From contig CM097886.1 of assembly GCA_044892525.1 (NCBI GenBank), positions 161,076,001 through 161,140,000 of the forward strand: 64,000 nt of DNA, read 5' to 3'. The translations under genes and the position numbers were made by a program. Origin of the DNA: Schmidtea polychroa. Taxonomy: Eukaryota. Under the pieces are notes generated by a model. It ran no database searches. It was given only the letters and a program-made list of their open reading frames with translations, and was not told the origin of the DNA. Each line of letters begins with the position of its first letter. The stretch's first letter is position 1. Shown here one piece after another: positions 23,241 through 48,102 of the stretch.

Positions 23241-23328
23241 ATTGGTCCGCACGAATAAGAATTTGATATATATACAACTACCAAAAACATTAAATTTACT
23301 GTTAACCCCGAGCATTTCATAGGTAAGA
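23241..23328 (+). promoter_or_regulatory. Putative LTR promoter (inverted CCAAT, TATA-like) and leader splice donor
   Basis: ATTGG 23241-45, TATATATA 23267-74, AG|GTAAGA donor at 23323, lying between two copies of the 28-bp repeat tttactgttaaccccgagcatttcatag (23295-23322, 23344-23371). Function is inferred. Confidence 0.4.
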
Positions 23329-25766: not shown

Positions 25767-26519
25767 ATGTTATCAAACCACAAATCAGCTCTACGTCCCT
25801 GCTTCTCCTGCTCAGATAAAAATGCAGTGATTAAAGATCTTCAGGCCCAGATCGGTCGATATAAACGAAAAATCGACGAACTGGAAGGGACATGGTTTAG
25901 TCCCGCTCGGATGAAGGAGATCCAAAAGAAGCTCGATCGTAGCGAGCATTGCCGGGACGCGCTAATATCTGAGAGCCGTGCCCAAAGAAGTCTGATCAGA
26001 GAACAATCCGAGGCACTGCATAAGGTTTACGTGCAGGCGGCTACAACCCGAAAAATAGTGCAGGTTCCCATCCGAGAGGCCGATGACATCTTTCCGCCTC
26101 ATCACAACCTTTCCTCGAATCCATCTCCACCGTTCAAGAGACCGTGCCAAGACTGCGTCGAAAACGAATTGTCCCCCAAGCGACCAGATGTTGTCGTCAC
26201 GGGTACCAGTAAGCCCCCCACTGCTAGTCCATCTGTATCAGTCACCCTTCTGCAAGTGGCATCTTCAAGCAAACCCAAGCGCAAACAACTCTCTCGTGCA
26301 GAGCGCAAGAAGAGACAGCGCGAACGCGCCACTACAAAGCCAAACATCCCATCAATAGAGGATTCAACCAACGGTGGCAACTCTCACGTGTCCATCGACC
26401 TAACAACGGGACCCTCAGCACGAATCATATCAGCCGCTGGCGTAACGTGGGAAGAGAACGCTTCCGAGTTTTTTAACCTCGACGAATTATTCGCCGACGC
26501 TGAATGGGAGAAACAATAG
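25767..26519 (+). CDS. LTR-encoded 250-aa protein (5' LTR copy): coiled coil, two CxxC, basic NLS-like tract, acidic/aromatic tail
   Basis: ATG-initiated GC-richer ORF within an otherwise AT-rich LTR; RPCFSC and RPCQDC, KPKRKQLSRAERKKRQRER, EFFNLDELFADAEWEKQ. Confidence 0.7.
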   Translation: MLSNHKSALRPCFSCSDKNAVIKDLQAQIGRYKRKIDELEGTWFSPARMKEIQKKLDRSEHCRDALISESRAQRSLIREQSEALHKVYVQAATTRKIVQVPIREADDIFPPHHNLSSNPSPPFKRPCQDCVENELSPKRPDVVVTGTSKPPTASPSVSVTLLQVASSSKPKRKQLSRAERKKRQRERATTKPNIPSIEDSTNGGNSHVSIDLTTGPSARIISAAGVTWEENASEFFNLDELFADAEWEKQ

Positions 26520-27060
26520 AACCCCAGTGGCGGTCAGGACGAAGAACAAGGATCCGATCTATGTTGATTATGATGTTTTCTCTTCTTTCGACAAACATTA
26601 GTAAAGTGTACAGCTGAATCCTTGTGTCATAACGTTGAAATTAATAAATCTTGTTGTCTTACACGTTTTCGTTCATGAATAATTAGACTTTAATTAAGTG
26701 GGTTGAGTAGAGAACCCGCAAGATCTAGTGAGAAATTCCCAATTTGCATTCAGCGAATCCTGATAAGTGGTTGTGTAAGGAAATGGACGTAAGCCCTTCT
26801 ATCGGCAGTCGTGAATGGGAAGTCGAGGCCTCAGCAAGGAGTAGTTTTAAGGCAGAAGCTCACCTGCTTGCTGGTGTCTCGCCTGCATAGTGCAGTACCA
26901 ACGTGAAGTGATTCACGGGCACTATGTTGGAAGAAAGTTATGTGGGGTTTCACTCCAGGTTGACAAATCGGTGGCGCCTTTTATTCGAGATGGACAATCA
27001 ACCCTTAGACCCGTCAATATGGTAGAGCGGTCAGCCGAGGTGTAACCCCAACATGATTTT

Positions 27061-27078
27061 TGGGGGCTCAGCCGGGAT
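27061..27078 (+). promoter_or_regulatory. Primer-binding site, tRNA-Pro-like
   Basis: TGGGGGCTCAGCCGGGAT, 16/18 identical to the canonical tRNA-Pro PBS TGGGGGCTCGTCCGGGAT; 7 nt downstream of the 5' LTR. Confidence 0.8.
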
Positions 27079-27391: not shown

Positions 27392-27877
27392 ATGACAGAA
27401 TTCGCGAACCAAATGCAACAACTGCTCAAGTTTATCGATATAGAAAACGACTCCCTAACAACACTGACGCATAAAAGAGAAAAAATCAACGCGATATTAC
27501 TGCAAGCAATCGGACAAACACCAGTCGTACCTAATCATATGATATTAGCCACAGGCCTAAGTCGCCCAGATGGAAAAATAAACCCCGAAACCGTATATCA
27601 GTGGTATCAAGAGAGATTGAACCACCCAACATTAAATCTAGATTATCAGCGTCTAAAAGACTCACTAAATACAATACCAGATGCAATCGAACAAAAAATA
27701 CAGGAAAAAGTTAACCAATTACGAACTTGTATAGCCTGCAAACTCCGTCCTATTCGCGTATTATTCTTGCCGTGTGGACACCTCAGTCACTGTGAAGAGT
27801 GTGTAAAAGACCTAAAAAGATGCACGCTGTGCAAATATGAAATAAAAGAGACCCATATGGTCTATTATGGCGAATGA
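27392..27877 (+). CDS. 161-aa protein with C-terminal IAP/MDM2-type RING finger (putative E3 ligase), in the element's 5' leader
   Basis: CIACKLRPIRVLFLPCGHLSHCEECVKDLKRCTLCKYEIKETHMVY, with the FLPCGH motif and extreme C-terminal position typical of IAP RINGs; preceded by the acceptor ttacttttccaacag (27387-89). Confidence 0.85.
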   Translation: MTEFANQMQQLLKFIDIENDSLTTLTHKREKINAILLQAIGQTPVVPNHMILATGLSRPDGKINPETVYQWYQERLNHPTLNLDYQRLKDSLNTIPDAIEQKIQEKVNQLRTCIACKLRPIRVLFLPCGHLSHCEECVKDLKRCTLCKYEIKETHMVYYGE

Positions 27878-28459: not shown

Positions 28460-28822
28460 GAGCTGTCGAATAATCCAGCCGGTCAAGGAAGAAGATTGAG
28501 CTGTTGAATAGTGCCAGCCAGTCGTAAGGTCGAGTTGTGAAAAGTCCAACCGATCAGGAAGGAGGAAGACTGAGCTGTTGAATAGTGCCAGCCAGTCGTA
28601 AGGTCGAGTTGTGAAAAGTCCAACCGATCAGGAAGGAGGAAGACTGAGCTGTTGAATAGTGCCAGCCAGTCGTAAGGTCGAGTTGTGAAAAGTCCAACCG
28701 ATCAGGAAGGAGGAAGATTGAGCTGTTGAATAGTGCCAGCCAGTCGTAAGATTGAGTTGTTGAATAGTCCAACCGATCAGAAGGAAGAAGATTGAGCTGT
28801 TGAATAGTGCCAGCCAGTCGTA
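28460..28822 (+). repeat. Higher-order tandem repeat, 74-bp unit (34+40-bp related subunits), ~4.5 copies
   Basis: gagctgttgaatag recurs at 28498, 28572, 28646, 28720 and 28794; a degenerate 38-bp subunit sits at 28460. Confidence 0.92.
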
Positions 28823-30082: not shown

Positions 30083-33000
30083 ATGACGAATGTCGTAAAA
30101 ACCGACGAGTATAAAGAGAAGTTCAGAGGAGAACCGTTCAACGGAAATGCAAACAAGCTAGCAACGTTCATAACTAATTTTGAAGTTTATATCACTGTGT
30201 GTGGATGGACACCCGAAGCAATTAGTAAAAGGATGCCGTTGTTTTTGTGCGATAGTGCATTAGAGGTATATTTAGAAGCTAAAGAGAGAGACACGAAATT
30301 AGAAAAGTGGGAAGATATTAAAACATTCCTGAAGAAAACCTTCGGAGCCAGTAAGCCAATCAACCAGGCGTTGGGCGAACTAGCAAATAGGAAACAAAGA
30401 GCAAACGAATCGATAACATTATATGCCAGTGAATTGCGGAGATTAGCGAAGAAAGCAATGAATGGAAAATTACCCGAAGAAAATCTGATCGGTTATTTCA
30501 TAGAGGGATTACGCCGAGAAGAAGTAAGAGCCTCAGTAGGTTGTCAAATGTGCAAAACATTAGAGGAAGCCATAGATTGGGCTACAAGATGCGAGCTCCA
30601 CCTTCCAGCTCAAATGAATATTATGCAAGAGGAGGGAAGGATAGCGACAGCAATAGCGAAAGCGGATAACGGAGATAACAACAATCAAGAACCGAAAATG
30701 AATCAATTTATACCAGGAGCGCACCAAATTTTCAAACCACCACAAGGACGATCAAACGGGAATAATGGTAATCGTAACAACCCGAATAATGAGAACAATT
30801 TCAATAATCGGCGAAATATGAACGATAACAAGCAGTGCCGAACATGCGGTAAACCAGGACACTGGGACAGAGATTGTTATAGAAATTCAAATTGTAATCG
30901 TTGCGGACGGCGTGGACATACCGAAAATGTATGCCAATTGCGAGGCTGTTTTAACTGTGGTCAGCCAGGTCACATCTCCAGAGATTGCCGAGAAAGGGGC
31001 CAACAACAACGACCACCACAGCGAAATAATAATTATATAGCGAATCCGCAACGACAAAGTAACCCTAACGAAGGAAAACAAATGAACGTTATGCAGGAAA
31101 TTTCGCAGATGAAACAGATGATGCAACAAATGATGAGACCAAGACAAGAATCAGCACCACAACAAACCCAGAATATACGTATGATGAGGAGTACCGAAAA
31201 TCTCAACAATTATGAAGTGCATCAACATGTACAAGAATGGCAAAGGCTACAGGCCGAGGAAGAGAGGATAAAACGAGAACGCAACCAACAACGACAAGAA
31301 CAACCATTGCGAATAAATATGATGAAGTTAGTAAAAGACATGAAGAGCCAGTATTGCTACAATTACGGGAAAAGCCCAAGGGTAGTACCCATGACTGAAC
31401 CAGAAAAAGTAAAGGAAATAACAACGGAAATGAAAACAGAGAATTCAACCACGATTTCAAAAGGAAACCAGAGAATTCAGAAAATATTCTGGAAAAAGAT
31501 AAAGGATAAAATCGAAAAAGAACATAATAAAGCGAAAACCGAGACAGAAGATGAAAATAACAAGAGCGAGGAACAAACCAGTCAACTAAATCACCAAATG
31601 CTACAAGAATCAGAATCAGAAGAAACAACAATATTCGAAAGAAAGAAACTAAAGAGAGTACCAAGGATGAGAAACTTGCAAATCAATATGATGAAAAGGA
31701 CAAAAGATGTAGCATCGTCAGACGAAGAAGAAGATTATGTAAGTAGTTTGGGTGGAGAAATACTACAGCCGAATGAAATAAGCGAACCCTCAAAAGGGGA
31801 AATCAAAGAGGAAGAAAGCGGAAACGAGATAACCAGTGAAAGTGAAGACGAAGATATCGAAATAAAGTTGAGAAAAGCAAGGGAGGAAGCGATAAAACAG
31901 GTAGCCGAAATACTCCCAGTAGTAGTGAGGAACCAAGAGTTCATCGACGTAATACCATTCAGGCGATTCGTGCAAAAAGTGATGAAATTGGAAAGAAACG
32001 AGAAAGATCTAATACCAAACGAGGAAAAACCAATTATAAAAAACTATATGGAAAAAATGAAGCAGGCCGATACCACGCGGTATGTAATAAAAATTGGAAC
32101 GAGTAGAGGACTTGAAAGAATGTGGATAAAAAATACAGTCACCGACGAACTTTTCGATTGGATACGAGAACATTTGGGAAGTTCGAGAAAGAAAGAATAT
32201 CTGTATCAATACCAAGGAGAACAGATCAAACCAGATATGCACTTAGTAGATGCACTAATATGGCCAGGAGAAACGCAAATACTGAAGTTGCATAAAGAAA
32301 AACAACCAGCCAACCTTTACGACTGGGCTAAAGATGCCAAGGCAGAATATGATTTTAATATCAAATTGAAATTAGAACAAATAAAACAATGTACTCTGAG
32401 ACGAAACCTGGATAAGCTGATCAAACAAATTCAAGAACAAGTAGAAGACAACTGGGATTTACTCATCACCAGACGAGCCCCAGCCATGTACGAACTAATG
32501 AGCCGGTTGCGAGATACAGAAATGCTCCGAATGAGTGATTGGAGAACCATAAAGTTGATCCACAAATATGGAAGGTTAAAAGAAACCCAGCCACAGAGGT
32601 TGGAAATAACCATATGGTTACCGAACGAAGAAAAACGACGAATAAAAATGAGCAATCAGAGTACAGTGGATGACTTGGTATCAAAAATAAACCAAGAGAT
32701 AACGGAAAAGGTACGTAGCGAAAGTAGTGATGGTATGGTGGATGATGTAGTCATGATGTACGATAAGATAATATTACGAGCGGAGGACGACACCTCGTTA
32801 AGCGAAATGGGTATGTGGGACAATCATCAGATAATCAGGATAGTACCAATGGATGAATTCCGAACAAGAGATGTAACATATCAAAAAGAAATACGAGACC
32901 GGATGAAAACGTTGTATCAAAAATCTACAGAAATAATTGAAATCCACCAACAATGGTTAAAAGAAAAAGAGCTACAAGGAAAAATCACGAAATTAAATAC

Positions 33001-36000
33001 CAGATCTTGCAGACGAACCCCATGGGAAAGAGTGTGGAATGCAGAAAGTAAGGAATGGGAAATCCGGAAAGGAACCTTCGTGGAAACAGACATTGGTGAG
33101 ACAGAAAGTGAATCGGAGGAAGAAGAAGAGGAACCTCCAAAATATGAAGAGGAAGCAAGGGAACAGACATCAGATGACGAAGGCGAGACGGATGTCACAT
33201 CAGAAAGCGAAAATGAAGCGAGACATATTCATGCAATGAGGAAAAAGGAACGTGAATATGCTGATATGGACGGCGAGGAAGCGACGGAAGCAAGAGAACG
33301 AGAAGAGAAAGAAAGATATAAACAATTAGGCGATATTTTAGCAATGGGAGCGAAAAATCAAAAACGCCAGGTAGTAGCGTTGGCTAATATCATCTTAAAA
33401 ACATCAGAGAATATCCACAATCTGAGAGGAATGGCAAAGGCAATAGAGGAATACCGGCAATATAATGAATGGTATCCAGAACAGCTAGAACAAATTATTC
33501 GAAAATGGAGAAATCAGGAATGGGCACAAGACACCCAGGAGAGGTATCACATCCGAATCAAGTATCCGGACAAGAGCATCGAGGAACTAGAGGTGCATCC
33601 AACAACAAAAATTAGAGAACTAAAAAAGAAATTAGCATATGAAACTCCATTCCATCTGCAACTGTTCGGAAAATCACTAGACGATAATGCAGACGTCGGG
33701 ATAACACCCATGAGATTGGAAGAGACAAATGTATTAACAATGGCAGAAACGTTGGGAAAACCGTTAAAAAGGAAAAGTAAAATTATTAAACCAACAAAAG
33801 GCAGTTTGAGTACTCCAAGTCCGAACAAAGCACCAAGTAAATCTAATGAAACTGAAGAAGTTGAAGAGATAATCCTGGAAGATAGTGACGATGAACCAGG
33901 AGAAAGATCACCGCTATTAGTGAGATGGCCGACAGGAGCCGAAATGTGGACTAATAACCAGCCATCAACGAGTTATCAACAACCAACGAAACTGAACAGC
34001 AAAGAAATCATCGACAATACTACGGAAACCGAAACGGATGAACAATTCCAGAAGCAAAGAGAACCAACGAAAGTAACACCAGAAAGTCAAACCGACAAAA
34101 TAATAGACGAATGGAATGAGTGGCTAAGAAATAACGATAGCTCATTACCCAGAACGGATAACGAAAGAAATCCGAATTACGAAAATACCAGAGAAGCCGG
34201 AACGATGATGGAAAAACGGGCAAAAGGAAGACCTAAGAAACAAGGAGAAAAGTCTGAGTTCAAAACCAAAGAACAATTAAAGCAAGAACAAGGGCAAGTT
34301 CGATTAGAAAAATTGGATAAAATAGTATGGGATCTAAAGGAAGCCCAACCAACGATCGAAAGAGGAGAAAAATGGATACGAGAATTGTTAAAAGATATGT
34401 TAATAATAACAAACCCACAACTTAGACGTTTGTGGCAACGGAAAGTAGCCAGTACGGAAGCTAGACAATTATGGCACATCGTTTCGGGGATAATCCCAAA
34501 GTTAATCAAAGAGAAAACGAAAACCACCAAAACGGATTGGGGCGAAACAAAGAAAGTGATTGAGCAGCTCACGACAAATGCAAATGATGACGAGCATCAC
34601 CTAGTGGTAATCACGTATTTGATGTATAATTTGATGGGACTAGCTGCGAGGAAAATACCAAATAAACAGTTTGCAAATCATGTGGAAATGACCGTTTCAA
34701 TCATAGAGAATACTATTGAACCACATATTATTCGTGCCGGAGGATGGAAAAGACTTATACAAGCGCCACGGAAAAATGAGCAAGAAAGGTCGATGCAAGT
34801 TAGATTGAAAAAATTGTTAAATGAACTAGAATGGGAACTACCGATGAAAGATCCCGCAAGCCGAAAAGCATCAATAAATTCGTTAATGATGACTATGATG
34901 ATATGGATGTTGTGCACAAGTGGAGCAACAGGTTTTACCATCTACGATTGTGATAATATGATAATGAGAGATAAATACTCATTGAGAGACATAGAAGAAT
35001 GCAGACAAGCCTCACCCAACAAATTGGACATCGTGAGAACAAAAGTTACTTACCATGTATATCAAGAATCAGATTTCATCAGAACGCAAGCAAGGGAATG
35101 CGTAGTATCAAAAAAGGTACTCGCATATTACTGTGGACAATATTCGTATTCGACTCTTATACTACCCGGTCTGGATAAGGAAATCGTATCAATACAACGA
35201 GAGGATTGTAAAGAGCTATTTAGAACCGGAGCGCTAAAAATGCATAACGGAGTGACAATTCACGGACAAACTGGAATGATTAAAACCGAAAGTGTTTACG
35301 TATCCGGAAAAGTAAAATCATCAGATGGGTCATGTAACGGAGGTACGTATACGATCCGAGGCGAGGTAATATCGGGAGTTGTAGTGATCGAGTCTTACAC
35401 GGTCGAATTAAAAGAATACGAAGCGCAATTTGACGCAAATAATTACCAAATGAAGACCAACCCAACGTGTAGAGCTACAGAAAACGTATGCAGGACAGGA
35501 GTATCAACTATAATCTATGAAGCTAATACCCAAAAATGCCGACTCCAACTGTTAAAAAGTGCTTTGTTCAATGAAGTAAAAGGAGAAATATATGAGAACG
35601 AGAACGACGAGGATGGAAACGACAGAGTGAGAATGCGAAATGGAAAACCAATGCCACCATCTCCCAGAGAAAAGAGACTTTCAACGCAGAAGACACCAAC
35701 AGCATTAATCACAGACGATCCAGATCTAGGTATGAGGTTTATCAAAGAGAAAGAAACCACCAAATGTGACAGTATAGTATATAAAACCAATTACGCAGGT
35801 ATCTATATGTCGAGACAAATAATCGATAGAGCAGTGGGAAAGATAGCAACGGAGGACGTAAAACTATACTTATATGCAAATAATAAAATGGATTTTCTAT
35901 TTCATCGTGGACAAACGACCTTGCAAAAAGTATATTACGATCTGATACAAAACGATTGTTCATTGAATAAAGAAATATTGAAAACAAAGCTAGCTATTGC

Positions 36001-39000
36001 GATAACGCACCCAGATAACACGATGCCATCCCTCCCATTACCAGATGGACACTTTGGTAGAATGGTAGGAGAAGTGATGTACACATACCAGTGTACCAAG
36101 ACGTATGCACGAATGCCAGAAAAATCCATACTACCCGAAAAGAGATGTGCAAATGAATTAGAAATCCGTTATAAAGGACAAAATCGATTCGTCCAACCAG
36201 TCACTAGAATTATGAATCCAGTGGGTTTCTACCCAAATCTCTTTAACTGTTCTAATGCATACGGACCTTTATATGAAAGACCCGATGGGAAATGGATGAT
36301 GTTACCGGGAAAAACCATATCCGAGGAACCCAAGAAATTTGGATTAATAGAACTCGCCACAGAGCTGGATTTCAAACCTATAGACGTGTCAAACGGTGGT
36401 ATGTATTCCCCAGAAGATCTAGAAACAGCACGACTTAACGTACTCTTTCCAGCCAGACGAGAATCCATTTTGTCAAATATGGTTACAATAACGGGGGGAA
36501 CAAACTATCAATCAGGCCCGAATTACGAGCTGCTATTATCGCCAGACCATTTTCAACAAGCTACGTCAAACATGATGAAAGCAATGTGGGGAAGATTCTT
36601 AGTTTTTGGACAAATGATGGCCGGGATATTAGGGATCATACTCATAATTCAGATAGTCAGAGTAATACTAACACAAATGTTAGCTTGTTTCGATATATAC
36701 AAGCGGGAAAAGAAAGTTAACTGGAAAATGATAGTAGGCTTCTTACCATTTTTAGCTAAAACCATGGTATTACATGGTCACTCAAAAGACATTCATCGGA
36801 TAAAGCGATTGATTAAAATATTAACAAAGATTAAAGGAACCGACGAGGAAGTAGGCAGACGATTCCGGAAAGTAATGTACGATGAAGCAACAAGACGACA
36901 ATTGAAAAAGAATAAGCCAAAATTCTTGGACCGATTTAGAAGCCAATCATCTAACAGCGATAGTGACGACGATGATAACGGGAACGATAAATGTCTTTAT
37001 CCAAACAGAAACCCAAACGAAAAACCAATGGAAACGGCACCATATTGGGAAAAGGAAAAGACAAACACCTGGATCGCCAATGGAAGCTATATACCACCGG
37101 ATATCGTGGGACCACAAGCAGCTTTGACCATGACACAAAATATGTATCCGCAATTACCGAGTCAACCCGGTATGCATTATATGCCAATACGACGTACCAA
37201 AAGTGTAGATCAAGCAGATGACGTAAGAACAATCGCAGCAATGAGTCTACCTGGAGGTCCAGCAGTAACAGTTATGATTCAAATCAATGGTAAAGAAACC
37301 AATGCTATGATAGACACAGGAGCTAATGTATCAGCGATAGCGATTAATCAAATTCCCAGTAAACACTGGAAAGATATCGAATCAACAACAATTCACATCA
37401 TAGCATGTAGTAAAGAAACAGTGGACGTGGTCGGAAGATGGTGGACTACATTGAGATACCAGGACAACGAAATTGAAACGTATTTGGCAGTAATACCAAA
37501 ACTTAGCGTACCATGCATAATCGGAACGGACCTGATGCCAGAATTATTAAAAGAAGTCGTAATAGACTTAACAACTATGTGTTTAAAAGACAAAACCGGT
37601 AGAATATGCAAAATGAATGCAGTCATCAGATGTCCAGAAAAAATAATAGTACCAGCAAAATCGCAGATGATTTGTCAGATAAAAGTGGATACGGGTATGG
37701 AAGGAGAAGTTATCTTTGAACCAAGCAAGTCATTCGAAAAGCGACGAGAATTACCACTCGCAAGAGAAATAATCACAATAAACCAAGAAGGAGTGATACC
37801 GCTCAACATCACGAATTTCGAAGAGGAAGACAAAATCATTTATGAGAACGAAAAATTGGGAAGATTGACCCCAATGATGGACATAGAATTACCGAAAGTG
37901 ACCAACGAGATGATCAAAGATGATGAATTATGGACAATAGATAGTATGTTGTTGACGAATGATGAAAAGAAAAAATTACACCGATTGTTGGTAGAATATA
38001 AAGATATATTCGCCATCTCAGACTTAGACTTGGGTACATGCGATGTTACCCTACATGCAATACCCCTCATAGATGAAACTCCAATTGCATTAAGACCATA
38101 CAAGCTAGCAGAAATGCAAAAAGAAATAGCCGAAGCCGAAGTACAAAAGATGCTGGACGCAAAAGTAATCGAACCAAGTTGCTCACCTTGGCAATTCCCA
38201 GTGGTCATGGTGAAAAAGAAAGATGGCACCCAACGATTCTGTATCGATTATCGGAAGTTAAACGCAGTGACCAAGAGAGATACCTATCCATTGCCGGACA
38301 TCAATGAGATGTTATTGATGTTGCAAGGGGCAGCATATTTTACTTCTTTAGATCTAAAAAGTGGATACTGGCAGATTAAAGTCAAAGATGAGGACAAAGA
38401 GAAAACAGCTTTCACGTTGGGACGAGATCTATATCAATTCAGGAAAATGCCATTTGGACTGACCAACGCACCAGCATCATTTCAACGGTGTATGAACTTT
38501 GTCACCCATGGAATCAAACAATGTATGGTATATATTGATGATTTACTAATCTATTCAGCGACATTTGAACAACATCTGGAAGATATCCGAAACGTATTTA
38601 TTAGATTAAGACAGTGGAAACTCAAACTCAAACCATCAAAATGCGATTGGGCAAAGGAAAAAGTCACGTTTTTAGGACACATAGTGTCAGCTAAAGGAAA
38701 GGAGCCAGATCCAAGAAACATTGAGAAAATAAAAACATGTCCAGCACCGAAAACTGTCACCCAAGTGCAGGAATTTCTAGGATTATGCGGATACTATCGC
38801 AAATTTATCAAAAATTATGCAGGAATTGCAAAACCAATCCAGGAATTAGTAAAGAAGGATATTTCGTTCATTTGGGAAAAAGAACAACAACAGGCGTTCG
38901 AAACGCTGAGGGATAAACTAATCGAAGCACCTATCCTCGTACACCCAGATTTTAAGAAGCCATTTCTATTGGCAACGGATGCAAGCGGGTACGCGGCAGG

Positions 39001-42000
39001 CGCGATTCTGGGACAATTAGACGATGAGGGAAAAGAGAGAGTAATCGGGTATTACAGTCGAACATTCAAAAAGCACGAAAAGAACTATTCGGTAACAGAA
39101 CGAGAAGCATTGGCTATAATACAAGCTATCAAACACTTCCGATATTTACTATGGGGACATGAGATATGCATAACCACAGATCATCAACCATTAGTGTGGT
39201 TAGGGCAACATAAAGAAGCGTCCAGTAGACTGATGCGATGGGCCATGCAATTGCAAGAATACTCCCCATTTATAAAATTCAAAGCGGGAAGAGCAAATGC
39301 CAACGCCGATTGTATGTCAAGATTTATTTTCCCAGATTTGGTGGATTCAGAAATGCAACGCATATGCTTAATAGTAGCGGAAGATTTGGATTTCTGTCAA
39401 TTGCGAAAGGACCAACAAGAGGACGCGGAATTAAAACAAATTATCGATTATGTAAAAACCGGAAAGACAGATGTATATGCGAAAGACCAAAAATTAAAAG
39501 AACATATGGATAAACACCGACACCGATATGTTATAGAGAAAGATTGGTTGCTGATAATGGATGGGGAAAAACGATTAATGTGTATACCGGAAAACCGACG
39601 AAAAGAGCTACTAACGCAATATCACGACGGGAGATTGGGAGGACATATGTCATCGAAAAAGACGTTAGCAAGAATGAAACAGAAATATTTTTGGCCTACG
39701 TTAACTGAAGATGTAACCGAATGGGTAAAAAATTGTCTAACTTGTGCAACCAGGAAGAATACGGGATCAAAATGGAAAGCACCTTTAACGCCAATGCCAG
39801 TACCAATAGAACCAATGACAATGATATCCATGGACGTAGTTGGTCCACTACCAGAGTCAGATAAAGGAAACGTTTACATTCTGGTGATCACAGACTTTCT
39901 TACGAAATTTCCAGAAGCATTCGCGATGCCAGACCAAAAAGCTAAAACAATCGCAAAAATTTTGGTAGAAGAGATATGTTGCCGATATGGAACACCAAAA
40001 CAAATCTTAACCGATCAGGGAACTAATTTTATGAGTGAGATAATGAGCGAAGTAACAAATTACTTCAAAATAGCAAAACTAAGAACATCTCCATACCACC
40101 CTCAAACCAATGGGATGACGGAAAGATTTAATGGAACACTTATACAAATGTTATCAAACTACGTTGACCGTCACCAACGAGATTGGGACGAATATATAAA
40201 CCTATGTCTTATGGCGTACAGAATGTCGATTCACGCATCAACGAAAATGAGCCCATTCAAATTAATGTACGGAAGAGAATGTAACATGCCAATGGACCTG
40301 GAATACCAACCACCGATATCGCAGTATATGGAGATCGATGATTATGTTACGAAATTCAAGGAAAGAATGCAAGAAATTTGGGAAACTGCGGGATTAAATA
40401 TCAAGTTCTACCAGGAAAGTTATAAAGATTTACACGATCGAAAGAAAAACGTGAAGCAACATACGTTCCAAACAGGTGATTGGGTAATGATAGAAACCCC
40501 GGAATTAATTCCAGGAACCACAAAAAAGTTACAACGCAACGGAAAAGGACCATATGAGATCTTATTCGTAGGCGAAACTAATGTAAGAGTGAAATTGGTA
40601 AATAACCCCTTTACCAGACCAATATACGTAAACGTGGCACGATGCAAATCAATTCCAAAAACAGCCACTAGTCAACCAGAAGGCCGTACATTAACCACAC
40701 GTTCGCAAACCTACCGAATGAACATGATGCAACAACTCGCAGAACCGATCACTAGACGATTAGGTATCCAACCATCAGAAGCGGAAAAGATTGTAAAAGA
40801 GGTAAAAATTAAAATACCTGGATGGGCAAAAGATCGATTAGATTTCGAAATATTAGGAGGATTATTGACGATGATCGAGAACTATGCAAATAGAGAAAGG
40901 ACACACCCATTATTGCGAGTAGTCAAAAGCCAATGGCCAATATTAATTACCATAACAGATCATTACGGAGACACACCACTACACAAACTCATGAAAGTAG
41001 GTAACAACGAGCAAATACTAGAAACAATAGAAGCATTTCACGACTGCAAGCGATCAACAGAACAAACAAACAACCAAGGTTACACACCATTAATGATAGC
41101 CGCAAACAGAGGCAAAACAAAAGACATTATAACCGCATTACTCGATACCGGATCGAAAATAACTACACAAGACCACGAGCGGAAAAACGCTCTACATCAT
41201 GCTATCGGAGGGAGAAGTACCGAGGCGTTCACGTCATTGATGGAACTACTATCATATGAGGACAATCGGGAAGTCGGAAACATGTATGATGGATTGTTAA
41301 CAGCGATCAAAGAAAAACTGACGACAATTACCGGAATGTTAATTACATGGCGAAATCCAATTCGAAACGATTATATGATCAACGTAAACGAAGCGTTCAC
41401 GAGAGGAGAGAACACGCTGATGAGAGAAGCTATGAAAGGACATCATTTATTCGAAATCCCGAATCAATTACTAGAACGAGGGATAAAATTCACAAATCAC
41501 AAAGACGAACAGTTAACAAAAAAGCGAATCGACACATTCGAAAAATCACTATTCCAATTTACTAACCAAGTACGAAATAAATATTGGGAAACGGTAAGTG
41601 TGTTATATATGATGGACACAATGAATAACATCCGCGAGAATTACATGGATATTATCCAAGTACTTACAGCAGAGGAACGAATCAATAATCCAAACGGAAA
41701 GAAAACGAAAATAAGGTATGAGAAATCCAGGGAATCAAAGTCAACAACGAACCAAACGGTCATAAACAACGTCATCGAAACCAAATCAATGAGTATAGAT
41801 CAAGAGGCAATAATACGCAAAGCAAAAGAAGTGTTCTTTGAGGAAATGCTAGAGTTGTCAGACGAAATAATATTGTCAAAAATAATAAAAGCTGTACATA
41901 CATACGCAAGAGATCAAACCACGGGTTTAGATATCGGGAAAATCAAAACCTTCTTGCCTCGAGCATTTACGATGGTAACGAAGGATTCCAGAACACCCCT

Positions 42001-43936
42001 ACAACAAGCAATACTAGCAGCGAAAGAAAATAGAGCAATAACGATCGTGAGAATCCTTGGAGATATGGGCGAGGAAACCAACACGAAAAATGAACAAGGT
42101 GAAACCGCTATGATGTATGCAGCTATAACGAAAATACACCCAAAAACACTCCACATCCTACATCAATCAGGATCGAAACTAGACGAAAAGTCCAATGAAG
42201 GAAATTCCACCTTGGACTGGGCAACCATACAGCCAAACTTAGAAATGATCAGATTTATTTGCAAAAATGCGACAAAAGAAGAAGTTGAAAATATGTGCAA
42301 AAACACATCTCAGTTTCAATGGAATACGGTACGGAAAAATCTAGAAGCAATGAAATTATTATTAACCTGGAGAGTACCACAAAATAATAAATATGCGATA
42401 AATGTAAACGAATTCTACGAAAACGGAGAAAATGCGATGGTAAAGAATACCCTAACTAAGGGGGGGACGCCTAAAATTATTTTATTAGTATTAAATAGAG
42501 AAGACCTAAAATTCACGCAAAATCAGAACGAGCAACAACGAATTGGGAAACATCGTCGTATGCAATTGAGAGAGTTAGTTAAAGAATGGAATAGAAAGAG
42601 ACATGCTGCAACGGGTAGAAAAGAGTTTGAATTCGAAGCAAAATTAGCAAGAAACAGAGTGCTAACAGCATATCGCAGATTATTGAACGATATAAATGTC
42701 GAGGACGACATTTTAAATGACAGCGGGGGAGATAAATACGATGACAATGATGGAAAAGGCCGGAAAGAGGATAAAGAGAAAAGAGAACCGGAAGAGGATA
42801 AACCGGAAAACAAGGATTTGGATACGAAAAGAGAGGGAAACAGGCCGGGAACCAAGACCAAAGAGGAGGAAAAATCGAATAATGGAAAACAGAGGGTATG
42901 CCTACCTTTCACTAACAAAGAAATAGAGACAAATATGATATTAATGATAATTATGCTTACCATGATAGAGTTAGTAACAGCTCAGGGAGGGACGAGAACG
43001 ATAAAAGAAACCAAAGAAGCGGAGAATCAAGATAGCAAAGAGGATGAACTAAAGCAAGAAAAGAAAAAGCAAGCACAAGAGCAGCAGTGGGATTTAAAGG
43101 AAGAATGGGACTTAAAGGAAAGGTGCATACTAGGAAGATGCATGTCTAGAGCGTATCAGAAACTAGTACTGATAAATGAGGACACAGAACCAATAACAGA
43201 AGTAAGAATACAAGAAGCATACCGAAATCGAGACGGGAAGAGAATAACGAACGTCAAAGGAAAAGAGGTACACCTAGGAAAAGGTGGTGAAGTAGTAATA
43301 ACGCAGCTCCAACCAAGAAAAGAGCACAAAGTCTGTATTTCAAGATTAGGACCGGGGGAGAGATGCCATCAATATGTGACGCAGCAGCAGCCCCCGAAGG
43401 AATATACGGTTTGTATCTGGAGAAACGAATCAAAAAGAGAATGCCGACGATACCCGGGGAAAAGAGGAAAGAAAAGGAAAAACCGCGACGAAAAGGACGA
43501 AGGAGGAAAGCACAAGAAAACCGGCGAGGAAGCTCAAGACAACTATGTTTCGGAAGAAGAGATGGAAAAAATACAAAAGATGGCAAAGGAGGGTATGAAC
43601 GAGGAAATAGCAAGAATACGGGAAAGGATGAAAGGAAACGGCAAAAGAGGGAACGAGAAAAGTACAGAAGCAATATCAACATTAACAAACCAGGAAAAAC
43701 CAGAGAGTATAAGCGTGAAGCAGATGATGTGGATCAGTGGGATAATAATAACAGGGGCATTCCTAATCATAACGGGGGGAACAATAAAAATAATTAAGGA
43801 TAAACGACATCGCGGAGAACTAGAGATGACTCGAATCAGAAATTTCCAACATCGAGTGAAACGACCAAGTGATATCAAACAAGAACAGTGGGTGGAGGCC
43901 TGGAACGCTCAGCGCCCTCCAAACTCACGTATATAG
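30083..43936 (+). CDS. 4,617-aa Gag-Env-Pol-ankyrin polyprotein of the giant retroelement
   Basis: One uninterrupted ORF: capsid-like N-terminus, 3 CCHC knuckles, Ubl domains, glycoprotein, DTG protease, YIDD RT, TDAS RNase H, HHCC/DDE/GPY integrase, ankyrin repeats, C-terminal TM. Confidence 0.95.
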   Translation: MTNVVKTDEYKEKFRGEPFNGNANKLATFITNFEVYITVCGWTPEAISKRMPLFLCDSALEVYLEAKERDTKLEKWEDIKTFLKKTFGASKPINQALGELANRKQRANESITLYASELRRLAKKAMNGKLPEENLIGYFIEGLRREEVRASVGCQMCKTLEEAIDWATRCELHLPAQMNIMQEEGRIATAIAKADNGDNNNQEPKMNQFIPGAHQIFKPPQGRSNGNNGNRNNPNNENNFNNRRNMNDNKQCRTCGKPGHWDRDCYRNSNCNRCGRRGHTENVCQLRGCFNCGQPGHISRDCRERGQQQRPPQRNNNYIANPQRQSNPNEGKQMNVMQEISQMKQMMQQMMRPRQESAPQQTQNIRMMRSTENLNNYEVHQHVQEWQRLQAEEERIKRERNQQRQEQPLRINMMKLVKDMKSQYCYNYGKSPRVVPMTEPEKVKEITTEMKTENSTTISKGNQRIQKIFWKKIKDKIEKEHNKAKTETEDENNKSEEQTSQLNHQMLQESESEETTIFERKKLKRVPRMRNLQINMMKRTKDVASSDEEEDYVSSLGGEILQPNEISEPSKGEIKEEESGNEITSESEDEDIEIKLRKAREEAIKQVAEILPVVVRNQEFIDVIPFRRFVQKVMKLERNEKDLIPNEEKPIIKNYMEKMKQADTTRYVIKIGTSRGLERMWIKNTVTDELFDWIREHLGSSRKKEYLYQYQGEQIKPDMHLVDALIWPGETQILKLHKEKQPANLYDWAKDAKAEYDFNIKLKLEQIKQCTLRRNLDKLIKQIQEQVEDNWDLLITRRAPAMYELMSRLRDTEMLRMSDWRTIKLIHKYGRLKETQPQRLEITIWLPNEEKRRIKMSNQSTVDDLVSKINQEITEKVRSESSDGMVDDVVMMYDKIILRAEDDTSLSEMGMWDNHQIIRIVPMDEFRTRDVTYQKEIRDRMKTLYQKSTEIIEIHQQWLKEKELQGKITKLNTRSCRRTPWERVWNAESKEWEIRKGTFVETDIGETESESEEEEEEPPKYEEEAREQTSDDEGETDVTSESENEARHIHAMRKKEREYADMDGEEATEAREREEKERYKQLGDILAMGAKNQKRQVVALANIILKTSENIHNLRGMAKAIEEYRQYNEWYPEQLEQIIRKWRNQEWAQDTQERYHIRIKYPDKSIEELEVHPTTKIRELKKKLAYETPFHLQLFGKSLDDNADVGITPMRLEETNVLTMAETLGKPLKRKSKIIKPTKGSLSTPSPNKAPSKSNETEEVEEIILEDSDDEPGERSPLLVRWPTGAEMWTNNQPSTSYQQPTKLNSKEIIDNTTETETDEQFQKQREPTKVTPESQTDKIIDEWNEWLRNNDSSLPRTDNERNPNYENTREAGTMMEKRAKGRPKKQGEKSEFKTKEQLKQEQGQVRLEKLDKIVWDLKEAQPTIERGEKWIRELLKDMLIITNPQLRRLWQRKVASTEARQLWHIVSGIIPKLIKEKTKTTKTDWGETKKVIEQLTTNANDDEHHLVVITYLMYNLMGLAARKIPNKQFANHVEMTVSIIENTIEPHIIRAGGWKRLIQAPRKNEQERSMQVRLKKLLNELEWELPMKDPASRKASINSLMMTMMIWMLCTSGATGFTIYDCDNMIMRDKYSLRDIEECRQASPNKLDIVRTKVTYHVYQESDFIRTQARECVVSKKVLAYYCGQYSYSTLILPGLDKEIVSIQREDCKELFRTGALKMHNGVTIHGQTGMIKTESVYVSGKVKSSDGSCNGGTYTIRGEVISGVVVIESYTVELKEYEAQFDANNYQMKTNPTCRATENVCRTGVSTIIYEANTQKCRLQLLKSALFNEVKGEIYENENDEDGNDRVRMRNGKPMPPSPREKRLSTQKTPTALITDDPDLGMRFIKEKETTKCDSIVYKTNYAGIYMSRQIIDRAVGKIATEDVKLYLYANNKMDFLFHRGQTTLQKVYYDLIQNDCSLNKEILKTKLAIAITHPDNTMPSLPLPDGHFGRMVGEVMYTYQCTKTYARMPEKSILPEKRCANELEIRYKGQNRFVQPVTRIMNPVGFYPNLFNCSNAYGPLYERPDGKWMMLPGKTISEEPKKFGLIELATELDFKPIDVSNGGMYSPEDLETARLNVLFPARRESILSNMVTITGGTNYQSGPNYELLLSPDHFQQATSNMMKAMWGRFLVFGQMMAGILGIILIIQIVRVILTQMLACFDIYKREKKVNWKMIVGFLPFLAKTMVLHGHSKDIHRIKRLIKILTKIKGTDEEVGRRFRKVMYDEATRRQLKKNKPKFLDRFRSQSSNSDSDDDDNGNDKCLYPNRNPNEKPMETAPYWEKEKTNTWIANGSYIPPDIVGPQAALTMTQNMYPQLPSQPGMHYMPIRRTKSVDQADDVRTIAAMSLPGGPAVTVMIQINGKETNAMIDTGANVSAIAINQIPSKHWKDIESTTIHIIACSKETVDVVGRWWTTLRYQDNEIETYLAVIPKLSVPCIIGTDLMPELLKEVVIDLTTMCLKDKTGRICKMNAVIRCPEKIIVPAKSQMICQIKVDTGMEGEVIFEPSKSFEKRRELPLAREIITINQEGVIPLNITNFEEEDKIIYENEKLGRLTPMMDIELPKVTNEMIKDDELWTIDSMLLTNDEKKKLHRLLVEYKDIFAISDLDLGTCDVTLHAIPLIDETPIALRPYKLAEMQKEIAEAEVQKMLDAKVIEPSCSPWQFPVVMVKKKDGTQRFCIDYRKLNAVTKRDTYPLPDINEMLLMLQGAAYFTSLDLKSGYWQIKVKDEDKEKTAFTLGRDLYQFRKMPFGLTNAPASFQRCMNFVTHGIKQCMVYIDDLLIYSATFEQHLEDIRNVFIRLRQWKLKLKPSKCDWAKEKVTFLGHIVSAKGKEPDPRNIEKIKTCPAPKTVTQVQEFLGLCGYYRKFIKNYAGIAKPIQELVKKDISFIWEKEQQQAFETLRDKLIEAPILVHPDFKKPFLLATDASGYAAGAILGQLDDEGKERVIGYYSRTFKKHEKNYSVTEREALAIIQAIKHFRYLLWGHEICITTDHQPLVWLGQHKEASSRLMRWAMQLQEYSPFIKFKAGRANANADCMSRFIFPDLVDSEMQRICLIVAEDLDFCQLRKDQQEDAELKQIIDYVKTGKTDVYAKDQKLKEHMDKHRHRYVIEKDWLLIMDGEKRLMCIPENRRKELLTQYHDGRLGGHMSSKKTLARMKQKYFWPTLTEDVTEWVKNCLTCATRKNTGSKWKAPLTPMPVPIEPMTMISMDVVGPLPESDKGNVYILVITDFLTKFPEAFAMPDQKAKTIAKILVEEICCRYGTPKQILTDQGTNFMSEIMSEVTNYFKIAKLRTSPYHPQTNGMTERFNGTLIQMLSNYVDRHQRDWDEYINLCLMAYRMSIHASTKMSPFKLMYGRECNMPMDLEYQPPISQYMEIDDYVTKFKERMQEIWETAGLNIKFYQESYKDLHDRKKNVKQHTFQTGDWVMIETPELIPGTTKKLQRNGKGPYEILFVGETNVRVKLVNNPFTRPIYVNVARCKSIPKTATSQPEGRTLTTRSQTYRMNMMQQLAEPITRRLGIQPSEAEKIVKEVKIKIPGWAKDRLDFEILGGLLTMIENYANRERTHPLLRVVKSQWPILITITDHYGDTPLHKLMKVGNNEQILETIEAFHDCKRSTEQTNNQGYTPLMIAANRGKTKDIITALLDTGSKITTQDHERKNALHHAIGGRSTEAFTSLMELLSYEDNREVGNMYDGLLTAIKEKLTTITGMLITWRNPIRNDYMINVNEAFTRGENTLMREAMKGHHLFEIPNQLLERGIKFTNHKDEQLTKKRIDTFEKSLFQFTNQVRNKYWETVSVLYMMDTMNNIRENYMDIIQVLTAEERINNPNGKKTKIRYEKSRESKSTTNQTVINNVIETKSMSIDQEAIIRKAKEVFFEEMLELSDEIILSKIIKAVHTYARDQTTGLDIGKIKTFLPRAFTMVTKDSRTPLQQAILAAKENRAITIVRILGDMGEETNTKNEQGETAMMYAAITKIHPKTLHILHQSGSKLDEKSNEGNSTLDWATIQPNLEMIRFICKNATKEEVENMCKNTSQFQWNTVRKNLEAMKLLLTWRVPQNNKYAINVNEFYENGENAMVKNTLTKGGTPKIILLVLNREDLKFTQNQNEQQRIGKHRRMQLRELVKEWNRKRHAATGRKEFEFEAKLARNRVLTAYRRLLNDINVEDDILNDSGGDKYDDNDGKGRKEDKEKREPEEDKPENKDLDTKREGNRPGTKTKEEEKSNNGKQRVCLPFTNKEIETNMILMIIMLTMIELVTAQGGTRTIKETKEAENQDSKEDELKQEKKKQAQEQQWDLKEEWDLKERCILGRCMSRAYQKLVLINEDTEPITEVRIQEAYRNRDGKRITNVKGKEVHLGKGGEVVITQLQPRKEHKVCISRLGPGERCHQYVTQQQPPKEYTVCIWRNESKRECRRYPGKRGKKRKNRDEKDEGGKHKKTGEEAQDNYVSEEEMEKIQKMAKEGMNEEIARIRERMKGNGKRGNEKSTEAISTLTNQEKPESISVKQMMWISGIIITGAFLIITGGTIKIIKDKRHRGELEMTRIRNFQHRVKRPSDIKQEQWVEAWNAQRPPNSRI
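30836..30988 (+). other. Gag nucleocapsid: three CCHC zinc knuckles
   Basis: CRTCGKPGHWDRDC, CNRCGRRGHTENVC, CFNCGQPGHISRDC. Confidence 0.95.
32078..33742 (+). other. Three ubiquitin/SUMO-like domains within the polyprotein (32078-32290, 32600-32848, 33542-33742)
   Basis: Beta-grasp-like patterns: YVIKI...YLYQYQGEQIKPDMHLVDALI; LEITIWLPN...TVDDLVSKI...DDTSLSEMGM; IRIKYPD...HPTTKIRELKKKL...LQLFGKSLDD. Confidence 0.6.
34300..34760 (+). other. Bcl-2-like helical domain within the polyprotein, preceded by an AT-hook-like motif (34214-34240)
   Basis: BH2-like IEPHIIRAGGWKRLI; weak BH1-like EHHLVVITYL; KRAKGRPKK. Confidence 0.5.
34874..36780 (+). other. Envelope glycoprotein, chuvirus/herpes-gB-like (class III fusion), with internal signal peptide and C-terminal TM
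   Basis: Hydrophobic INSLMMTMMIWMLCTSGATG followed by FTIYDC...SLRDIEEC...ECVV...YYCGQYS...EDCKELFRTG; later YANNKMDF, QNDC, GEVMYTYQC, GGMYSPEDL, LFPARR; TM FLVFGQMMAGILGIILIIQIVRVIL (36596-36690). The cysteine spacing is as I recall for chuvirus-type glycoproteins. Confidence 0.85.
37262..40650 (+). other. Pol region: aspartic protease, dUTPase-like spacer, RT, RNase H, integrase
   Basis: MIDTGA (D at 37313); PYKL and RFCIDYRKLN; YIDD 38531-42; LATDASG; HDGRLGGH...CLTC; SMDVVG, TDQG, GMTERFN; GKGPY. Confidence 0.97.
40958..42560 (+). other. Two tandem ~340-aa ankyrin-repeat modules after integrase
   Basis: GDTPLH, GYTPLMIAA, KNALHHA and RTPLQQA, GETAMMYAA, GNSTLDWA; paired motifs are exactly 1,020 nt apart. 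Confidence 0.85.
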
Positions 43937-44541: not shown

Positions 44542-45930
44542 ATGGATAAACGACAAAGAGAAGAGTTCAGAGAGATTGTCGAGCAAGTCCGAAAATCTAC
44601 AACGATCAGAATACACAAACATGTTATGTGCGGAATATGTGAAAAGTTGTTAAAGGAACCTCACCAAACGCAATGTGGATGCAGAGCATGTAAAGAATGT
44701 ATCAGTGAAGCAATAAAGAATAGACCACAGAGGTGCCCGGTGTGTAAAGAGACACTAATATCGAGTTTAGAAGACACTAACGAGGATAAAGCCGCAGTGA
44801 AAGACATGTTAAACACCAACCTGGGATGCAAAAATGCCCCATGCGAATGGAAAGGAGTAATATGGAAGGTAGTACAACATATGGGAGAATGTATGTACAG
44901 AATTGGCCAGTGTGAAAGGTGCCATAAAACCATTCGAGCAAGCGAAGAAAAAGAGCATCAAAGGCAGTGTGAAGAGAGATTGGAAAGATGTGAACACTGT
45001 GGAGAAATAGATACGTGGATAAATCTCACCCTCAAACATCACAATGTCCAAGAGGAGAGAGTATGTGCGGAGTTCAGTGGGGAATGCCCAAACGGATGTA
45101 ACCAAGGGGAAATAATGAAGGTGGCACAGCATCTAAGGGAATGCGAAAAGAAAAGAATGACATGTGTACTAGGTAGATGGGGTTGTCAGAAATTACTACA
45201 CCGAGGTGAGTTACCACATCATTTAGTAGAAAATGCTTCAACTCACGCAGAAATGTGGTCGACTGCGTTACAAGAAAGCGAAGAGAAAGTAAAACAAATG
45301 GAGATAGAGATAACATCGTTGAAAGTATTAGTCAAAGAACTACTAGAAGAAAGGAAAGCGTTCGAAGAAGCCCGAGCAAACATAAAGATGCAAATAAACC
45401 GAACAGAAATTAGTAATAATCAGGCCAAGGAGCTACATCAGAAAATACGGGAAATAAATCTACATGAGATAACCCCAACAGCACCCTACATATGGAAAAT
45501 AACGGGAGTAAAAGAAAGAATACGAAGAGCAAAAACCGGAGAAGAGACAAGAATAACAAGTCCTACATTCCATTCTTGGAAAAATGGGTACAAAATGAAA
45601 ATGAAGATATATCCCAACGGGGACGGAACCGGATTAGATACGCACTTTTCGATTTTCTTTCTGTTATGTAAAGGAGAATACGACGAAATATTAGAATGGC
45701 CGTTCCAGGCAAAAATCGATATTACTCTGATGAGCAACCAAAGTATACATGAGCAAAGCTTCAAAACAACGGGGAATCAAATAGCTTACCAGAGGCCCCT
45801 CAACGAAGAAGGATCAGCAACAGGAGCACCTACGTTCATCTCACAACAAAGAGTAGAAGATATGGCGAGAAATGATACCATATATATCAAGATGACCGTG
45901 AGGAAAGAGGAGAAGGGTAGAACGGAATAA
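44542..45930 (+). CDS. TRAF: Intronless TRAF-family protein (RING, TRAF zinc fingers, coiled coil, MATH/TRAF-C)
   Basis: RING CGICEKLL..PHQTQCGCRACKEC...CPVC (44629-44745); several CxxxC/H-x3-C fingers; MATH YIWKI...SPTF...GYKMKMKIYPNGDGTG..THFSIFF.LCKGEYDEILEWPF. Confidence 0.93.
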   Translation: MDKRQREEFREIVEQVRKSTTIRIHKHVMCGICEKLLKEPHQTQCGCRACKECISEAIKNRPQRCPVCKETLISSLEDTNEDKAAVKDMLNTNLGCKNAPCEWKGVIWKVVQHMGECMYRIGQCERCHKTIRASEEKEHQRQCEERLERCEHCGEIDTWINLTLKHHNVQEERVCAEFSGECPNGCNQGEIMKVAQHLRECEKKRMTCVLGRWGCQKLLHRGELPHHLVENASTHAEMWSTALQESEEKVKQMEIEITSLKVLVKELLEERKAFEEARANIKMQINRTEISNNQAKELHQKIREINLHEITPTAPYIWKITGVKERIRRAKTGEETRITSPTFHSWKNGYKMKMKIYPNGDGTGLDTHFSIFFLLCKGEYDEILEWPFQAKIDITLMSNQSIHEQSFKTTGNQIAYQRPLNEEGSATGAPTFISQQRVEDMARNDTIYIKMTVRKEEKGRTE

Positions 45931-46123: not shown

Positions 46124-47179
46124 ATGACACAAGAGAAAATAACCGAAATTGCGATAGACCCAACCAATGTCAACAAGACACAAATTCCCCGAGAACATAA
46201 CAAAAAATGGAACAAAGTAATGTTCCAACTAACTAATCTCACCCGAAACTACATCGAAGAAGCTAGAGAAGAGGAGAACAGTAAATATCAATGGCTAATC
46301 CACAATTTAAGAGAGGAAGCCGAAGCATGTAAAAGAGCATCAAAATGGGCATCATTAGAAAATACCCGCCAAGAAGCGCACAGCCACTACTTAAAGCAGC
46401 TAGTGCAGGAAGCGAGAAAGAGACTTACCGATGAGAACACCAAGCGCGAAGCGGAAAAGCAAATAGAAGGAAGGAAAATGATGCACTTAGTGGCAGAAGC
46501 GAGAAAATGGAAAAGACAAAACAGAGAAATGAAAAAAGAGATGAAAGAATTGCCCATGAGACTCGGATATGAAAGCGAACAAGGTAAATGGGAGGAGAAT
46601 TTAATAATAAAGGAAGAATTGAAAAGGTTGAGAAAGGTCGCCGCCCGAAGCCAAACCTGGCAAACAAAGGCTATGGAGTTTGAGCGACATTTGGCAATGA
46701 AGTGCGACATAAGAGAGCACGAGAATGCCGCAATGGAAGAGAGGATAACCCAACAAGCGGGACGGGTTGTGGAATTAGTAAATCAGGTAGAAGAGATGAA
46801 AAGAGACCTTAATGGATTACAAGGATCGCTGGAACAAAGAAACATGGTCCTAGCGGGAAAAAACAGAAAATTAGAAAACGAAAGGAAAATGTACAACGAA
46901 AATATTAAAAACTTAGAAATAGAAATTGAAAAATGGAAGGGCGACGAGAAAATCAAGGCCCTAGACAAACAGATAGAAGCGAAAGATGAAGAGACAAGGT
47001 ATCTCACCTATCTGCTCGACGAGGAATTGAATATCACTCGAGCTCTAAGAGACGAAGTTAGTGAACTGAGAGCTCAAATTCCCCAATATTACCTACCATA
47101 CGACCCTATTGCGATACAGTTACATTCCGCGGTCGATAGTGATGAAGGTTATGTAGGCCAGGAGGAAACCTTCGTATGA
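46124..47179 (+). CDS. Accessory ORF, 351-aa long coiled-coil protein
   Basis: ATG-initiated, E/K/R/L heptad-rich, same A-rich codon style as the polyprotein. Confidence 0.75.
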   Translation: MTQEKITEIAIDPTNVNKTQIPREHNKKWNKVMFQLTNLTRNYIEEAREEENSKYQWLIHNLREEAEACKRASKWASLENTRQEAHSHYLKQLVQEARKRLTDENTKREAEKQIEGRKMMHLVAEARKWKRQNREMKKEMKELPMRLGYESEQGKWEENLIIKEELKRLRKVAARSQTWQTKAMEFERHLAMKCDIREHENAAMEERITQQAGRVVELVNQVEEMKRDLNGLQGSLEQRNMVLAGKNRKLENERKMYNENIKNLEIEIEKWKGDEKIKALDKQIEAKDEETRYLTYLLDEELNITRALRDEVSELRAQIPQYYLPYDPIAIQLHSAVDSDEGYVGQEETFV

Positions 47180-47348
47180 GGATGGATGAAAAGATGAAAA
47201 ACTAAAAACCGGGACGTATATCCCAAACAAAAAAATTAAAGTACAGTAAAAGTATTTGAGGGACTGTAACCCTGTGTAAATAAAAACGATATAAATGTAT
47301 AAGTATAAGTCGCACTGTAGCGCATGATTAATTGTAAATATTATAGAT

Positions 47349-48047: not shown

Positions 48048-48102
48048 ATTAAGGGTCATTAAAACCAATTGTAAATAAACATAATGAATGTATAATAGTA
48101 TC

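Follow-up and report, generated by a model that had tools for sequence, protein, structure and literature searches.

The element and its polyprotein

We analysed a 64,000-nucleotide stretch of the Schmidtea polychroa genome (the window; assembly GCA_044892525.1, contig CM097886.1, positions 161,076,001 to 161,140,000, forward strand), in which a giant Burro-type long terminal repeat (LTR) retrotransposon encodes an envelope glycoprotein (Env) inside its polyprotein, in frame ahead of the protease. Self-alignment of the window delimits an LTR element of 30,216 bp that encloses the polyprotein open reading frame (ORF). The two LTRs, traced by lengthening a 300-base direct repeat to its full 4,150 bp, differ at one mismatch over that length and are flanked on both sides by the 4-bp sequence ATTC; insertion of this 30,216-bp element is recent. 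The principal features, in window coordinates, are as follows.

22904..27053, + strand: 5' LTR, 4,150 bp, TG...CA ends; target-site duplication (TSD) ATTC just before
30083..43936, + strand: polyprotein ORF, 4,617 aa from ATG, no internal stops
30236..30994, + strand: Gag core PF03732 (aa 52-145) and three CCHC zinc knuckles (Pfam, sequence)
33551-33655, + strand: weak ubiquitin-like segment (PF00240 E 0.025, under cut-off)
34556-34747, + strand: weak Bcl-2-like segment upstream of env (PF00452 E 0.076, under cut-off)
34874..34933, + strand: predicted internal signal peptide (SP), aa 1598-1617, opening with INSL; predicted signal-peptidase site ATG/F
34934..36592, + strand: predicted class III fusogen ectodomain (chuvirus G / herpes gB-like), aa 1618-2170
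36614..36670, + strand: predicted Env transmembrane (TM) helix, aa 2178-2196, then basic residues
36716..36772, + strand: weakly hydrophobic conserved segment VNWKMIVGFLPFLAKTMVL, after the Env TM
37271..40102, + strand: protease (PR), spacer, reverse transcriptase (RT), RNase H (RH), integrase (IN) (Pfam), in frame after the Env TM
41006..42256, + strand: ankyrin repeats (PF12796 E 6e-20)
42923..43792, + strand: predicted second signal peptide (SP2, aa 4281-4301), ectodomain and TM (TM2, aa 4548-4570), after the ankyrins
48970..53119, + strand: 3' LTR, 4,150 bp; ATTC directly after

The domain order is thus Gag, cargo, signal peptide, Env, TM, PR, RT, RNase H, integrase, ankyrins and a second membrane unit. 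As had been proposed from the sequence (the original prediction), Env shares one continuous ORF with protease and RT, with no stop or frameshift; the remaining two forward frames across env contain 62 and 33 stops. The coordinates given at that time were also right, position 34874 being codon 1598 (INSLMMTMMIWMLCTSGATG) and 34934 codon 1618 (FTIYDC). The further claim that Env lies between gag and protease stood as to order and frame, but Env does not directly adjoin Gag, because ~1,290 aa of other domains intervene between the last CCHC knuckle and the internal signal peptide. The Bcl-2-like part of this interval is under purifying selection among copies. Downstream, the protease carries DTGA at aa 2411 and the RT YIDD at aa 2817; the Pfam matches comprise the PR-RT-RH-IN order, a gypsy-type RT/RNase H and an H2C2 integrase, all Ty3/gypsy characters.

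A 200-aa env query returned 1,984 candidate copies in the genome. Among the 150 that were scored, 59, counting the one in the window, sit in an uninterrupted frame of exactly 4,732 codons between stops. This family of Burro-type Ty3/gypsy LTR elements is young and present in many copies.

Identity of the envelope segment

The Env segment matches Pfam PF24664 (Monjiviricetes_fusion) with an E-value of 3e-72, and its score of 244 bits, where the cut-off is 27, places the identification far beyond chance. An HMMER search with env against 1.84 billion representatives gave 1,060 matches at E<=0.001. These relatives surfaced only by the full HMMER search: in a word-index search with env at near length, not one of 6,521 candidates scored, and an env sequence search of the PDB returned 0 matches at E<=10. 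The ectodomain (aa 1618-2170) contains 14 cysteines, a single N-glycosylation sequon at N2055 and a single furin-like REKR at 1862, and is followed by the TM, in agreement with the Cys-rich ectodomain and TM originally described. In an alignment of 94 relatives, ten of the Env cysteines hardly vary.

An AF2 monomer model of Env, built from an alignment of 94 sequences, had a mean pLDDT of 88 and a central helix of 48 residues. Its top viral fold matches were chuvirus-type glycoproteins (E 6e-36, TM-score 0.68), and every listed PDB match was herpesvirus gB (best E 6e-14). By profile and modelled fold, the Env segment is a class III fusion protein with predicted fusion activity, which bears out the earlier assignment to the chuvirus/gB type. 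Other proteins join a member of this glycoprotein family in frame to an upstream DUF5641 (P0064) or to upstream immunoglobulin domains (P0141).

Predicted signal peptide and membrane topology

The Env TM (aa 2178-2196) is the 19-residue window of highest hydropathy (KD 2.53). On a rough insertion scale with an ad hoc weighting, the four best segments of the 4,617 residues were the internal signal peptide (0.64), the Env TM (-0.46), SP2 (-0.12) and TM2 (-0.28); the next scored 3.0. Among the 150 hits compared, a hydrophobic stretch precedes a YDC-type motif at the N-terminus in 74 and internally in 20, with none in 56. The site three residues ahead of YDC coincides with ATG/F. Relatives carry a matching hydrophobic stretch, with residues just ahead of YDC that are mostly small, and F1618 is therefore the predicted mature start, as first proposed. 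The signal peptide was readable in 14 of 16 older genomic copies; the hydrophobic core was present in 14/14 and a small residue before F in 13/14.

Whether VNWKMIVGFLPFLA forms a second TM had also been asked. We rejected this candidate as unlikely: its insertion score is 3.95 versus -0.46 for the Env TM. Its counterpart in 10 relatives scored 2.55 to 6.25, compared with -0.93 to 1.74 for their TMs (P0002 left out), and a segment like VNWKMIVGFLPFLA follows the TM in all 8 stand-alone glycoproteins compared. A second pass is further disfavoured because it would place Pol in the lumen. The conserved segment VNWKMIVGFLPFLAKTMVL probably forms a helix that lies on the membrane surface or re-enters the membrane from the cytosolic side, without making a second TM.

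Conservation and selection

The arrangement is conserved beyond this genome. Among 21 relatives scanned with Pfam, picked mostly by length, env was followed in frame by protease in 10, of which 5 also carried RT, and relatives at 27-41% env identity share the gene order. Gag signatures upstream of env were found by Pfam in P0004, P0015 and P0017 and by BLAST in P0009, P0016 and P0017. Within the genome, env was retained, as the original prediction required: besides the 59/150 copies with the full frame, all 30 inspected copies picked by protease alone had the 3' half of env colinear upstream, without a large gap.

Selection was examined in the 16 older copies, which are 85-94% identical, using variants common to at least three copies. 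In the ectodomain, shared variants comprised 267 synonymous versus 37 non-synonymous (pN/pS 0.04); the signal peptide had 8 versus 0, and the TM with the next segment 27 versus 0. For comparison, pN/pS was 0.02 in the protease and 0.01 in the RT. These counts are of sites and not of independent events, because the older copies are mutually related. The env segment is under purifying selection.

Two or more aspartic-protease-like matches follow env in several relatives, namely P0001-P0004, P0008 and P0015, and P0001 has a further such match beyond integrase. The Env-PR-RT-IN polyprotein of P0006 is deposited under the name of a Flavobacteriaceae metagenome-assembled genome (HBK71150.1), a bacterial assembly that probably took in eukaryotic DNA during binning.

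Relation to Burro and other elements

The original prediction held that no described retroelement has this order. That claim of novelty fails: Burro elements (PMC6431247), the very case named beforehand as one that would overturn it, have been described with this order, as have other invertebrate elements (PMC13524379). Gag-Env-Pol was stated for Burro in 2019 and has since been extended to three phyla.

Burro (GYPSM1) elements are giant gypsy-like LTR retrotransposons of planarians (Arkhipova and Yushenova, 2019; PMC6431247), described there with ORF1 of 4,873 and 5,140 aa and with env in frame between a BCL2-like motif and the protease. The present element resembles them in its size above 30 kb (30,216 bp), in its long LTRs (4,150 bp each, with a 4-bp TSD), in its one giant, slightly shorter ORF (4,617 aa), in a Gag with three CCHC knuckles, in the in-frame position of env between a weakly Bcl-2-like segment and the protease, and in carrying ankyrins (PF12796, in ORF1) and MATH/TRAF domains (PF21355/PF22486). 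MATH/TRAF lies in a separate downstream ORF here, but inside ORF1 in the S. mediterranea Burro and in an upstream ORF in the D. tigrina Burro. A BIR domain is reported for S. mediterranea Burro1, whereas none was found here at E<=0.1 in ATG ORFs of at least 150 aa, a scan that leaves short or spliced frames aside. The SUMO/ubiquitin-like and BCL2-like motifs of Burro may correspond to the weak, sub-cut-off matches at the expected places; the published cargo motif calls came from HHpred, and ours were scored by Pfam profiles. The spacer between protease and RT sits where Burro has a dUTPase-like domain; the profile search gave no dUTPase match, and neither the dUTPase-like nor the Bcl-2-like segment had anything significant among PDB sequences. 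The Burro env was linked in PMC6431247 to gypsy Env and mononegavirus glycoproteins, compared with the class III fold predicted here. Signal peptides, topology and a second membrane unit go unmentioned in the Burro section of that paper. Our Burro-type assignment is made on these described features of the sequence and not on direct identity to the named Burro-1 to -4. BURRO1 is transcribed, and its RNA rises on smedwi-2 knockdown (PMC8532177).

Chary and Hayashi (eLife; PMC13524379) describe GAG-ENV-POL 'ancient errantiviruses' with a gB-type Env in Nematoda, Bryozoa and Platyhelminthes, among them six elements from S. mediterranea (Smed_errantivirus_1-6), and cite Sacco 2022 for nematodes. 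Our element has the same gene order and Env class. Its env is identical to none of the six Smed_errantivirus env rows and appears by eye nearest Smed_errantivirus_5, with 25/45 and 31/47 residues identical in two stretches; that element has 1 intact copy in the table of PMC13524379, compared with at least 59 full-frame copies in the family here. The passages of that paper on errantiviruses say nothing of how a single polyprotein would be processed. Atlas virus and other nematode belpaoviruses also encode an uninterrupted polyprotein with Gag, Pol and a captured RNA-virus fusogen (PMC9094657), but in Gag-Pol-Env order, with a BEL/Pao RT and a class II phlebovirus-like fusogen. With the glycoproteins of chuviruses (Monjiviricetes G) and herpes gB, Env shares PF24664, the cysteines, the predicted fold, and a TM with a similar membrane-proximal segment; those proteins are stand-alone with an N-terminal signal peptide, whereas Env here is embedded in a polyprotein. 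In a quick tree, 13 polyprotein-embedded rows formed one side of a branch (SH-aLRT 95), a grouping that is partly circular because the rows were chosen by similarity.

A proposed processing model and its alternatives

Starting from the observed gene order, single open frame, family and fold match, conservation and selection, we propose that this is the in-frame Env of a Burro-type element, threaded through the endoplasmic reticulum (ER) membrane in mid-polyprotein and freed by host signal peptidase together with the element protease (probability about 0.72). Gag and the cargo domains would be made in the cytosol. Residues 1598-1617 would then start translocation and be cut at ATG/F by signal peptidase, freeing the Env N-terminus; after this cut the upstream chain would remain membrane-anchored until the element protease cuts near INSL/M. 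The ectodomain would enter the lumen, and the TM at 2178-2196 would stop transfer, so that PR-RT-RH-IN and the ankyrins would stay cytosolic, tethered to the Env tail until the element protease separates the domains. Beyond integrase, SP2 and TM2 would bring about another such round of insertion. The likely product would be an enveloped particle able to move from cell to cell, into which Pol is brought by Env and not as a Gag-Pol fusion. A motif of the form [IM]N[MIVAS][MVLI] occurs 7 times in the polyprotein against a shuffle mean of 1.7 (1/1000 shuffles reach 7); the occurrences include the C-end of the protease, a site beyond integrase and the first residues of the signal peptide, and the ectodomain has none. 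A literature search for a printed processing model found nothing relevant, with figures and some supplements outside its scope.

Several points weigh against this proposal. The internal signal peptide is the weakest of the four segments on the insertion scale, and the signal-peptide and TM calls come from hydropathy and homology and not from SignalP or DeepTMHMM. Just before the proposed mature start, 1 of 14 older copies has D, and not every relative has a small residue there (P0002, for example, has M). TM-scores of the Env model to solved gB are only about 0.4. The shuffle comparison is inflated, since the motif was chosen after inspecting the sequence, and an IN-type motif before the signal peptide is not evident in the relatives; this makes release of the anchor in the manner of flaviviruses the least secure part of the model. 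Of 2,230 protease candidates, 150 were scored and 30 inspected, a sample in which rare env-less derivatives may be missed. Finally, the element is known here from its sequence.

The internal hydrophobic segment could instead be an uncleaved signal-anchor, leaving Env as a two-TM loop trimmed by the protease only on its cytosolic sides. Chary and Hayashi (PMC13524379) describe two arrangements of gB-type ectodomains, one with a signal peptide on one side and a TM on the other and one with a TM on each side, and the INSL motif match at the start of the internal segment would suit such trimming. The segment is nevertheless short and has small residues three places before YDC, like the N-terminal signal peptides of stand-alone proteins (74/150). 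Class III fusogens are, moreover, normally anchored at the C-terminus only, and we consider this topology improbable. A slightly better, though still low, chance attaches to a real single ORF whose stoichiometry is set at the level of RNA that is spliced, internally started or early-polyadenylated, so that Gag, Env and Pol are not equimolar; equimolar products follow only if there is a single mRNA. Retroviruses and most Ty3/gypsy elements make Gag in excess of Pol, and one contig of run X6 ends in 18 A at 32019, downstream of the knuckles, a single weak hint. The genome is A-rich just 3' of 32019, and this contig end may reflect early polyadenylation or an artefact. The contigs come from four runs, three of them guessed to be RNA (X1 and X6 among the guesses), and gaps in X6 and X7 are not evidence. 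Against an RNA-level partition, run X1 contigs fall in 30/30 bins, including the signal peptide-env junction (34882-35424) and the env tail (36761-37105), none of the 15 X1 joints shown of 23 skips env, and copies keep the whole frame.

Env might also be kept for an intracellular role, such as tethering during assembly or budding into internal vesicles, rather than for infecting other cells. No particle or transfer is described in the papers examined, but the entire ectodomain and not the anchor alone is under purifying selection near the protease level (0.04 versus 0.02), and its ten cysteines are nearly invariant; we regard such a role as very unlikely. An assembly artefact is ruled out by the 59 of 150 scored matches that share the open frame of 4,732 codons. 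Together with a chance insertion of a viral glycoprotein into one copy, it is almost certainly wrong and was rejected on the copies, on the relatives with the same order at 27-41% identity and on the published order.

A predicted second membrane unit

The polyprotein closes with a predicted signal-like stretch, an intervening part of ~245 aa and a predicted TM that has basic residues after it. Twelve copies were fetched for this region; SP2 was readable in 10/12 and TM2 unbroken in 7/12. In the 11 that were aligned (the alignment excludes two copies that have a stop in this region), shared variants were 5 synonymous versus 1 non-synonymous in SP2, 45 versus 11 in the core and 9 versus 2 in TM2. 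The second membrane unit is under purifying selection. P0001 and P0006 have the same post-integrase layout and P0014 a signal-like stretch, and no significant similarity was found among the four second units compared (best E 0.045). The unit had no Atlas match, no Pfam family at cut-off and no homologue among longer proteins. Its model had a pLDDT of 57, with a phage tail protein as best fold match (E 0.0015) and then mostly FN3 (E 0.007, weaker), giving a hint of an FN3-like core. The unit was not found in the literature searched (figures and some supplements outside that scope); its presence after integrase may be a novelty, and it may be a second envelope protein.

A bolder and doubtful extension is that Burro-type elements are intact enveloped viruses of planarian-type hosts whose polyprotein would cross the ER membrane four times, with Pol tethered at both ends, between the class III fusogen and the post-integrase unit, and packaged via the envelope proteins, and with that second unit, an FN3-like type I membrane protein, acting as an attachment or immune-modulating partner of the fusogen.

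Accessory ORFs and flanking features

Further features of the element are listed below.

27061..27078, + strand: candidate primer-binding site, an 18-mer occurring once in the window
27392..27877, + strand: upstream accessory ORF, 161 aa, C-terminal C3HC4 RING (PF13920 E 3e-11)
44542..45930, + strand: downstream TRAF-like ORF (RING and MATH), 462 aa (PF21355/PF22486)
46124..48744, + strand: three more accessory ORFs (351, 232 and 218 aa), from the ORF list

The TRAF-like ORF is under purifying selection (157 synonymous versus 57 non-synonymous shared variants, pN/pS 0.09). The accessory ORFs of 351, 232 and 218 aa matched no Pfam family above cut-off. The candidate primer-binding site, which may resemble that for tRNA-Pro, begins 7 nt beyond the end of the 5' LTR and is not flush with it (27054-27078). 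No clear polypurine tract is apparent in the sequence ahead of the 3' LTR. Each LTR contains an ORF of 250 aa (25767-26519 and 51833-52585) that matched no Pfam family at E<=0.1. A tandem array of ~74-bp units (28459-28834) occupies part of the leader, between the RING ORF and gag. Outside the element, 60537-62299 on the - strand is another Ty3/gypsy pol fragment (RNase H and integrase) in two overlapping frames.

Implications

With the gene order already described, the remaining value of this locus is a testable processing model. A conserved, selected signal peptide together with a single true TM leads to the prediction that Pol rides on the cytosolic tail of Env. If particles were shown, the dozens of full-frame copies in this young family would make it relevant to whether Burro elements are infectious proviruses.

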